Positions 22,541 through 43,970 of a stretch of DNA of 64,000 bases are shown here, in pieces. The position numbers were made by a program, and so were the translations under genes. This DNA is from Octopus sinensis (Eukaryota). Numbering within the stretch: the first letter of the stretch is position 1; each line of letters begins with the position of its first letter. The stretch lies in assembly GCF_006345805.1 (NCBI RefSeq), contig NC_042999.1:116932001-116996000 (forward strand), written 5' to 3'. A model generated the notes under the pieces. It did not search any database and was not told the origin of the DNA. It saw only the letters and a list, made by a program, of their open reading frames with translations.

Positions 22541-23463
22541 TACTACCAAGTTACTGTTGATTCGGGTAGCCGGTCCTCAACTGGGTTAACATTCGACAGA
22601 CTCTCCTCCTCCAATTCATTCTCCACATTCAACAGTCTTTTATAATGGCATTTCCAAGCCTCTATCTTTGCAGAATCCTTAAATGCAAGTGCACCATCAT
22701 CCATGTGGGCACATTTCTCTCCCATGTCATCGCACTTTTCTCTCACACCCTGTCTTGCAATCCGAAATACTTCAGCTGTTTGGTCCTCACTATGCTGAAC
22801 ATAGGCAAACTTCTTCTTTTCTACTTCTCCCTTATGCCTGTCTCCTAGCTTTCCTTCTAGCTATCTGATACAGTTCCCTGCTGCCCCCACTCTTCCAGGC
22901 CTTTCAGGCCTGTTTCTTTGCTCAAGTAGCCCTGTCTATTGTATTGTTCCACCACCACGTTACCCTGGCTCTGGAAGGGGCTTTGCACCAGCCACAGATT
23001 TGGTCTTTGGCACTCAGTAAGTTGTCTTGCAGGAATTCCTAGTTGCCCTCTAAGTCACAAGTTTGTAGCTCCTCCTCCTTCTCAAATTTCTCAATTAGGA
23101 TGTCCCTAAATATTTGACCATATGAAGCGTCCTTAAGCTTCCAAATCTTTCTTTTCCAGATTGATCTGCTCCTTGGCATCCTTGTGACCTGGAGTCTAAA
23201 TTTGCTAATGACTAGTCTATGCTGGGATGTACATTCTTCACCAGGAAGGGTCTTTGTATTTAAGAGTAACCATGCATCACCCTGTCTAGTGAGAATGAAA
23301 TTGATCTGGCTAGCAGTCACCTGATTTATAGATTATCAGGTGGCTGGCCTGCTTCCTGAAGTTGGTGTTGCAGATCGATAGGTTATTTGCATCACAGAAC
23401 TCCAGTAGCTTTATTTACATTATTTACAATTGACGGATATTTGTCCTCATCTTGTTTGTTGTT

Positions 23464-23509
23464 AACACAATGTTTCAGCTGATATACCCTCCAGCCTTCA
23501 TCAGGTGTC
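23464..23509 (-). ncRNA. Minimal type I hammerhead ribozyme motif (family A)
   Basis: GACAC-CTGATGA-A-GGCTG..CAGCT-GAAAC-ATT-GTGTT on the minus strand; stem III altered (CGT>CAT inferred). Confidence 0.7.
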
Positions 23510-23597
23510 TTGGAGAAATTTCGAACCTGGGTTCTCATTCCTAAGGTATTTTTTGATATTGTTGTTGTTGTTTGTTGTTGTTGTTGTTGTTGTTCTT

Positions 23598-23628
<31 letters not shown>

Positions 23629-23692
23629 TTATTATTATTATTATTATTATTATCATTATTATTATTATTATTATTATTGTTATTGTTATTAT

Positions 23693-23764
23693 TCAGGTCA
23701 CTGCCTGGAATCGAACTCAGAATCTTGGGGTTAGTAGCCTGTGCTCTAAATCACTATGCCATAT
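23693..23764 (-). promoter_or_regulatory. tRNA-derived Pol III promoter (A and B boxes)
   Basis: Minus strand TGGCATAGTGATTTAGAGC (box A-like) ... GAGTTCGATTCC (box B); no intact acceptor stem, so not called a tRNA gene. Confidence 0.75.
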
Positions 23765-23833
23765 AACAACAACAACAACAACATCATCAAAAAATACCTT
23801 AGGAATGAGAACCCAGGTTCGAAATTTCCCCAA

Positions 23834-23879
23834 GACACCTGATGAAGGCTGGAGTGTATATCAGCCGAAACATAGTGTT
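23834..23879 (+). ncRNA. Minimal type I hammerhead ribozyme motif (family A, inverted copy)
   Basis: GACAC-CTGATGA(23839-45)-A-GGCTG...CAGCC-GAAAC(23867-71)-ATA-GTGTT; stems I and II pair. Confidence 0.75.
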
Positions 23880-24381
23880 AACAACAAACAAGATGAGGAC
23901 AAATAACTGTCAATGTAAATAATGTAAATAATGTACATAATTCCTCATCTCTTAAATATAGAACTCCAGTAACCTTGTTCCTTCTTCATTTCAGGAGCCA
24001 ATTCCATGATCCCCCATGTCCACCATGGAAGATACCAGGCTGCCATCTGACATGCCTATTGAAATCCCCAGCCATGGAGATTCCAATGGGCATGTCGGAC
24101 AGCAGCCTGGTATCTTATATATATATGTATGTAATGTATGTATGTAATGTATGTATGTATGTATGTATGTATGTATGTGTATGTATGTATGTATGTATGT
24201 ATGTATGTATGTGTGTATGTATGCATGCTTCTATACGACTGAAATCTGAATCATTGCTGACACGGGATGAATAGCTAACATCTGAATGACTAATGTCATT
24301 AATGGTATGAATACATGAGTATAGTCACATATAATAAATACTCTGCTACTTTGATTATTATATGTTATTGTCATTGTTGTT

Positions 24382-42434: not shown

Positions 42435-42642
42435 AATGTGACCGCGTGTGCACCGTTGGCGATTTCTTTTTTCCTCTGTCTTCCCTTCTCTGGATCTTTC
42501 CTTCTCCTATGTTTCTGACGAAGAGCTCCGCTTGAAACATTAAACCCTCCTTCTTTCCTTCTTTCCTGAGCATCCAAAATACTTTATTTGTTCCACGTCC
42601 TCGCGTTGTTGCGTTTTTTTGTGCTTTCTTGTTTGGATTAAC
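42435..42642 (+). mobile_element. pLTR-like repeat with a minimal hammerhead motif (family D) at 42511-42545
   Basis: GTTT-CTGACGA-A-GAGC-TCC-GCTT-GAAAC-ATT-AAAC; second diverged copy at 38510-38702. Confidence 0.7.
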
Positions 42643-43919: not shown

Positions 43920-43970
43920 AGCTTCCTGAAGATTTCTCTTGAATGAAACAGTTCTAGTCCTGTAGAAGCT
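43920..43970 (+). ncRNA. Type I hammerhead ribozyme motif (family C)
   Basis: Stem I AGCTTC/GAAGCT; CTGAAGA 43926-32; stem II TTC-TCTT-GAA closed by T.T; GAAA; stem III ACAG/CTGT; GUA triplet ending at 43964. Confidence 0.85.

Follow-up and report, generated by a model that had tools for sequence, protein, structure and literature searches.

A short insertion in the window, by which we mean the whole 64,000-nt stretch of Octopus sinensis DNA that was analysed, joins a tRNA-like head to a minimal hammerhead ribozyme of the kind carried by Penelope-like elements (PLEs). The preliminary description took it for a SINE head fused to a tail borrowed from a PLE. The locus thus raises the question of whether a SINE of this kind exists as a structure separate from its mobilizer, and of which promoter and which enzyme would have produced its copies.

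The insertion in the window

The insertion is flanked by a 12-bp target-site duplication, the two copies of which lie at 23396..23407 and 23960..23971, with a 3-base gap (23408..23410) between the left copy and the end of the element. All of the component parts reported earlier are present at this locus. On the minus strand, the tRNA/SINE-derived head (23691..23764, corresponding to family head positions 5–78) contains an A box at 23761-23751, in which the last G is replaced by A in the window copy, and a B box at 23718-23708. It is followed by an expanded (AAT)(AAG)(AAC) microsatellite (23561..23690), at a position occupied by a short (AAT)n spacer in most family copies, and by a module of about 150 bp (23411..23560). 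This module is the first arm of a pseudo-LTR and, according to the end classes given below, has the short 3′ end, approximately +58 from the predicted cut. Its minimal type I hammerhead (23464..23509, minus strand; stem I of 5 bp, stem II of 6 bp), has lost the stem III CpG (GAAACAT) and has T in place of C11.1. In full-length elements, the 842-aa frame begins with the ATG seen here at 23536..23538 on the same strand, and the majority frame runs from it through the hammerhead.

The two arms are joined head-to-head at 23764/23765. The second arm, on the plus strand, starts with an (AAC)n tract (23765..23784) and continues as an inverted copy of the module (23785..23965), which matches the first arm over 144 nt with 94% complementarity. 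It contains another minimal hammerhead, at 23834..23879 and also reading GAAACAT, and is terminated by a PLE tail of roughly 27 nt (23940-23965), assigned by the tail classes. The first six nucleotides of the right duplication (AGAACT) double as the terminus of the element, so what was described as an "inverted copy" on the plus strand represents a complete 3′ end with its PLE tail. Both hammerheads of the insertion are likely inactive, judging by their sequence, and Rfam and ARAGORN called neither the head nor the ribozyme at this locus. Opposite-strand ribozyme pairs 100–700 bp apart have been described as truncated PLEs (PMC4209133), and the window copy is one of these pairs, consisting of two pseudo-LTR copies of an autonomous Penelope-like retrotransposon inserted head-to-head.

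Several other structures were noted in the window. A near-perfect hairpin at 24029-24116 (42-nt arms, 86% complementary, 4-nt spacer), beside a (TATG)n tract, is possibly a small palindromic mobile element. A further minimal-hammerhead-like motif at 42511 on the plus strand, in a short repeat between TA-rich microsatellites, is likely the end repeat of another PLE family; similar sequence lies beside the genomic loci L015 and L038. A third family of hammerhead-like motifs is represented at 43922 (plus strand), 42842 and 52252 (both minus strand), two of them being located approximately 1.1 kb apart on opposite strands.

An autonomous element with the same head and module

The 2.72-Gb genome was searched with the head, and the hammerhead module was found downstream of it at 28 of the 30 loci recovered, in line with the co-occurrence anticipated earlier; three of these loci extend upstream into a reading frame. 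A search with a piece of the protein encoded by this frame gave 3,739 candidates in the genome, from which 30 loci were fetched: the head directly follows the stop codon at 28 of them, and the module comes next at 27. At four loci (L138, L140, L152, L162), the head or the module is also found ahead of the ORF, on its 5′ side. Present both after the stop codon and before the ORF, the head–hammerhead module is therefore the pseudo-LTR of the element.

The frame of one real copy, with 551 open codons, has 1,665 homologues, many with the RT domain PF00078 and some with the GIY-YIG domain PF01541, and those of full length measure approximately 810–855 aa. The assignment of both domains to the ORF follows from these homologues; direct Pfam and PDB searches with the ORF itself returned no significant match. 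The majority unit of approximately 2.7 kb contains an 842-aa frame with RT and endonuclease motifs, the length of the majority frame depending on the reference used (240 aa with one, 842 aa with another). Its ATG lies inside the module, and the frame passes through the ribozyme. The order of parts in the unit is head, (AAT)n, minimal hammerhead, tail region, 842-aa RT/GIY-YIG ORF, and then the same repeat. We rejected the idea of a short intron in the tail region, because no splice junction could be upheld at any locus, the unspliced frame is open over 842 aa, and the segment includes residues shared with relatives. Contigs from four runs taken to be RNA cover the element and are uninformative on starts, strand and level.

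Membership of the element in the EN+ PLEs is near certain, with its placement in the Penelope/Poseidon type based on homologue matches rather than on an RT tree. The features shared with canonical EN+ PLEs of this type, including the anole PAc element, are a single ORF of approximately 840 aa for RT and C-terminal GIY-YIG, the pseudo-LTR, inverted 5′ copies, a one-end tail, two 3′ end sites and an ORF running through the hammerhead (PMC11167929; PMC8557442); of these features, the one-end tail and the inverted 5′ copies have been reported for PLEs before (PMC8557442). In contrast to these elements, the pseudo-LTR of the window family has an A/B-box head with a sharp 5′ boundary, and the unit contains no runs of four T (T4). 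Amino acid identity to other PLE families of the genome, which we take to be Neptune-like, is about 30%.

The autonomous PLE sharing the module, which the preliminary description had proposed to look for, was thus found, and from that reading the shared module, the co-occurrence and the intact consensus survive. The separate SINE structure does not, the autonomous element itself having both head and ribozyme (28 of the 30 loci found by the ORF).

Two observations concern other elements. The closest long homologue (P0003, 56% identity) has the lowest Phe content among 22 long homologues, and at its N-terminus the frame likewise seems to run through a hammerhead. At loci L283–L287 (e.g., L286, C1:207475200-207478800), young PLE families were seen whose open frames are long (775–883 aa); a 781-aa frame and an identical score are common to several places, and these families may have been recently active.

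The tRNA-derived head and the absence of T4 runs

The window head aligned with the best tRNA gene of the same genome at a score of 58.5, compared with 19.4 ± 5.8 (maximum 36) for 300 shuffles, and is tRNA-derived beyond what such comparisons yield by chance; the comparison set was limited to Arg, Ala, Cys, Lys, Thr and Phe genes and does not fix the parent tRNA. A different tRNA-headed SINE-like repeat was observed at L150 (around 351-409) and L147. The window head scores 70.5 against the head of this repeat in L150, above the best tRNA gene and closer than any tRNA compared, which makes the repeat a candidate relative of the head's donor. The A/B-box pattern was found in 20 of 30 family copies, which served as a positive control, in 2 of 50 relatives (with a chance rate of 2.2%) and in none of 14 other PLE loci of the genome. 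Being rare in relatives and other PLE loci, the head is peculiar to the family of the window element, where it likely represents a Pol III internal promoter. At L013, L015, L030 and L060, the (AAT)n spacer has received repeated insertions of other repeats, with head–module distances of 400–850 nt.

The sense strand of the majority unit (2,714 nt) contains no T4 and 31 runs of four A. A synonymous-codon shuffle of this unit gave a mean of 3.1 T4 (P = 0.019, or P = 0.005 with Phe codons reset); the element protein is Phe-poor, like its closest long relative. Four full-length frames from other PLE families of the genome have 9–13 T4 each at a similar T content. All of the 52 related ORF stretches of at least 1.5 kb from metagenome contigs contain T4 (median 4.3 per kb), in a comparison that leaves out 28 shorter stretches of 80, one of which (747 nt) is without T4. 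Four of the 52 relatives have a single T4 (0.43–0.64 per kb), and single decayed family copies have 0.32 per kb; in one decayed copy, with two T4, the depletion is not significant (P = 0.44). The depletion of T4 runs in the family is thus of moderate extent. Among 30 tRNA genes of the genome inspected by eye, 25 have T4 or a longer run within 40 nt downstream, which is a weak point because the DNA is AT-rich.

Ends and starts of the copies

Module arms were sampled on contig C1, the selection using either a head pattern or a module pattern free of CpG. The 3′ ends of 166 module arms, measured from the predicted cut, fall mostly at +50..+60 (79 arms) and +81..+86 (73 arms), the two end sites of the family being approximately 27 nt apart. 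Inverted insertions account for 45 of the 86 sampled, and 28 of the 30 with both ends defined have one short and one tailed end. Exact duplications of at least 8 nt were identified at 11 of 30 inverted insertions, at 3 of 37 direct ones and at none of the shifted controls. Tandem arrays are absent as a rule; copies are single or head-to-head, with occasional direct module repeats (L077, L200). The arms differ in the base at N7, a free position of the hammerhead core, in 6 of 53 informative pairs, and some pairs therefore likely derive from two RNAs.

Exact 19-mer counts in the genome drop from 5,401 inside the head to 966 just upstream of it and 880 another 117 nt upstream (for a head 21-mer and a module 25-mer, the exact counts are 4,919 and 5,922). 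The start lies at −24..+9 in 56 of 88 head arms and inside the head in 21, and the other 11 extend into the ORF. Arms that seem to start at −16 and −13 represent fold-back joins, so that the real starts lie at −7..+9, most copies beginning 5–6 nt upstream of tRNA +1 or close by. Pol III starts transcription just upstream of the A box. The position at which the copies begin therefore fits a Pol III start, and a start at the tRNA head, seen in most copies, is what the Pol III transcription proposed earlier would predict.

Our preferred reading of these starts, to which we assign a probability of about 0.55, is that the head sets a Pol III start and that the short copies would be run-off cDNAs extending to it from internal RT start sites. 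Some considerations count against Pol III. An uncapped Pol III RNA is a poor mRNA, and in this family the head also includes a short upstream ATG-stop. In addition, the promoter of the characterised Penelope resembles that of LINEs, being internal to the repeat and without a TATA box (PMC2377424).

The native ORF/head junction is an imperfect inverted repeat, predicted to fold into a hairpin of −13.9 kcal/mol over 55 nt. The head could accordingly be a SINE remnant with no role of its own, lying in the 3′ UTR of a PLE that is transcribed by Pol II in the ordinary way, with the copy-number step arising where the hairpin or palindrome at the junction stops RT or anneals two cDNAs. Translation would then pose no difficulty, many inverted pairs are indeed joined at this palindrome, and ten arms start at +13..+19, near the base of the hairpin. 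However, the main peak at −7..+9 is located past the loop and not at the base, where a stalled RT stops, and clean direct copies with duplications (L062, L076, L252) start at the head as well. Only two inverted joins are of the native type, which keeps the native upstream sequence, versus 24 of the fold-back type, and the absence of T4 is left unexplained. We regard this origin of the step as unlikely.

The short copies, of about 250–280 nt and with SINE anatomy, length and duplications, might instead be Pol III templates in their own right, with the PLE protein copying their RNA again in trans; they would then make up a SINE lineage that depends on the PLE and arose from its repeat. Consistent with such a lineage, any part of the ORF is present in only 16 of the 86 sampled insertions. 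A reversed loop, as expected from an inverted-copy source, occurs in 4 of 43 arms classed as direct, but none of the reversed-loop copies has duplications. The arms of pairs share 59 derived changes where 30 are expected, some of them in the ribozyme and the window copy included, yet the excess amounts to only about 0.5 per pair and could reflect gene conversion. N7 is A in 18 of 74 head-start arms versus 7 of 71 ORF-linked arms, the latter having been picked by likeness to one protein; both N7 variants nevertheless occur in both classes, no diagnostic subfamily splits short from ORF-linked copies, and their divergence is similar (4.2% vs. 5.0%). The template of the anole element requires the first 172 nt of the ORF (PMC11167929), and if the window family is similar in this respect, short copies that end at +86 may be missing some of the binding region. 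With signs of second-round copying being rare, we consider a separate lineage improbable.

Lastly, the copies could be run-offs to a start of the autonomous RNA that is set by a Pol II internal promoter at the head, in keeping with the promoter of Penelope (PMC2377424), or by RNase P cutting of a tRNA-like fold. Nine arms aligning from +1 would favour such a start, but several of these arms are fold-back joins, clean starts are at −6..−3, no cloverleaf forms in the predicted fold of the family RNA and the T4 absence is not accounted for, so that this origin is highly improbable.

The hammerhead and deletions at the predicted cut

The majority sequence derived from 42 ORF-linked copies contains a full hammerhead core and the AACGTT palindrome, the latter as had been expected for the family consensus. 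Like the minimal hammerheads of metazoan PLEs (PMC4209133), the family hammerhead has an extra base before stem II, a G10.1-C11.1 pair, a long stem II, a short stem I and a palindromic stem III. Stem III reads ACGTT in 65, ACATT in 13 and ATGTT in 10 of 138 arms, and the core is intact in 42. The only common core variant outside CpG sites affects N7 (T in 105 and A in 29 of 141 arms). This core variation is as expected if the source elements were selected for ribozyme function. A family of dead ribozymes was considered and rejected, given that the G-to-A change at the stem III CpG is neither rarer nor commoner than at other CpGs and is about equal to C-to-T (17 vs. 16). Stems I and II form in the predicted fold, and a two-strand folding prediction of the dimer did not return the catalytic fold.

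According to alignment counts, small deletions affect positions −6..+4 of the predicted cut in 45 of 240 arms, compared with at most six at any other position and 1–2 at upstream sites having equal microhomology. They are distributed over both classes of arms (18 of 74 head-start and 14 of 71 ORF-linked) and both N7 backgrounds (35 of 181 and 9 of 48), and among 60 pairs they are found in a single arm in 16 and in both arms in 5; such a distribution indicates that the deletions are recurrent and not inherited. These scars hint at ribozyme cutting in vivo followed by an RT jump over the break. Slippage after insertion is an alternative source that may also apply. In the published account of metazoan PLE hammerheads (PMC4209133), we found no description of cut-site deletion scars such as those of the window family, and ribozyme cleavage was unnecessary in vitro for the anole element (PMC11167929).

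A possible course of transposition

Under the preferred reading of a Pol III start, a tRNA-derived SINE head would have been fixed behind the ORF and would then have taken over the role of promoter. The RNA would begin at the head of the 5′ repeat and could read the entire unit. The element protein would bind near the start of the ORF and prime reverse transcription at two positions within the RNA, using both strands of a target cut in a staggered manner; twin start sites and staggered-cut priming on both strands have been observed in vitro for the anole element (PMC11167929). A cDNA reaching the 5′ end of the RNA would yield a SINE-like copy of roughly 250 nt, and two such cDNAs, joining often at the head-start palindrome, would give rise to an inverted pair. 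The minority of copies containing the ORF would result from a cDNA crossing a cut-and-rejoined or tandem template. The hammerhead would likely cut some of the templates as a dimer and leave small deletions behind, and the window copy would have been generated in this way and have decayed since. The protein may come from separate transcripts made by Pol II read-through.

In a fuller version, which we offer only tentatively, a coding Penelope would have acquired its promoter in the form of a tRNA/SINE head and eliminated the Pol III terminators throughout its 2.7-kb unit. Pol III would make the full-length RNA, and the same promoter would flood the genome with SINE-like hammerhead copies, the deletion scars recording cleavage during transposition.

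Comparison with known systems and implications

Several known systems resemble the window family in part. In Schistosoma, Sm-alpha and Sj-alpha likewise have a Pol III promoter followed by a type I hammerhead within a short repeat (PMC6765202; PMC6155905), and the pairing of a tRNA-type promoter with a ribozyme is thus already known. These repeats are non-autonomous and often tandem, with a canonical ribozyme (PMC6765202), whereas the module of the window family is a dispersed part of a coding element, and its ribozyme is of the minimal type. The TRIMp3 elements (Cassandra, Helenus, Ajax) have a small-RNA-derived Pol III promoter in the terminal repeat, probably from a SINE insertion, but are non-coding LTR elements, while the head of the window family is located in the coding element itself; the autonomous partners of TRIMp3 have been argued to require Pol II (PMC10886601). 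Animal non-LTR retrozymes are non-coding hammerhead units related to PLE pseudo-LTRs as well; they are defined by tandem arrays, in contrast to the single or head-to-head copies with a tRNA head described here (bioRxiv 10.64898/2026.07.22.740005).

With respect to the definition of a SINE (SINEBase, PMC3531059), the short copies are under 700 bp and have a tRNA-derived head, but their partner is a PLE and not a LINE, and because this partner holds the same head the short form falls outside the definition. An octopus repeat annotation, in the part available to us, lists PLE and SINE families without such detail (PMC13282606). A search of the main text of openly available papers found no PLE with a tRNA-derived promoter, and an existing repeat-database entry under another name is possible.

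To our knowledge, autonomous retrotransposons are assumed to depend on Pol II (or on read-through by Pol I), and a Pol III promoter is regarded as the hallmark of their non-coding parasites. If true, the control of a coding PLE by a tRNA-type promoter would break this split between Pol II and Pol III, and would provide one route by which a SINE-like family arises inside its own mobilizer. The recurrent cut-site deletions suggest that the ribozyme cuts in vivo, a point that experiments in vitro with the anole element left open. Across the genome, the start of PLE transcription may be marked by the sharp 5′ boundary, and thousands of such short copies would be mis-annotated as SINEs.
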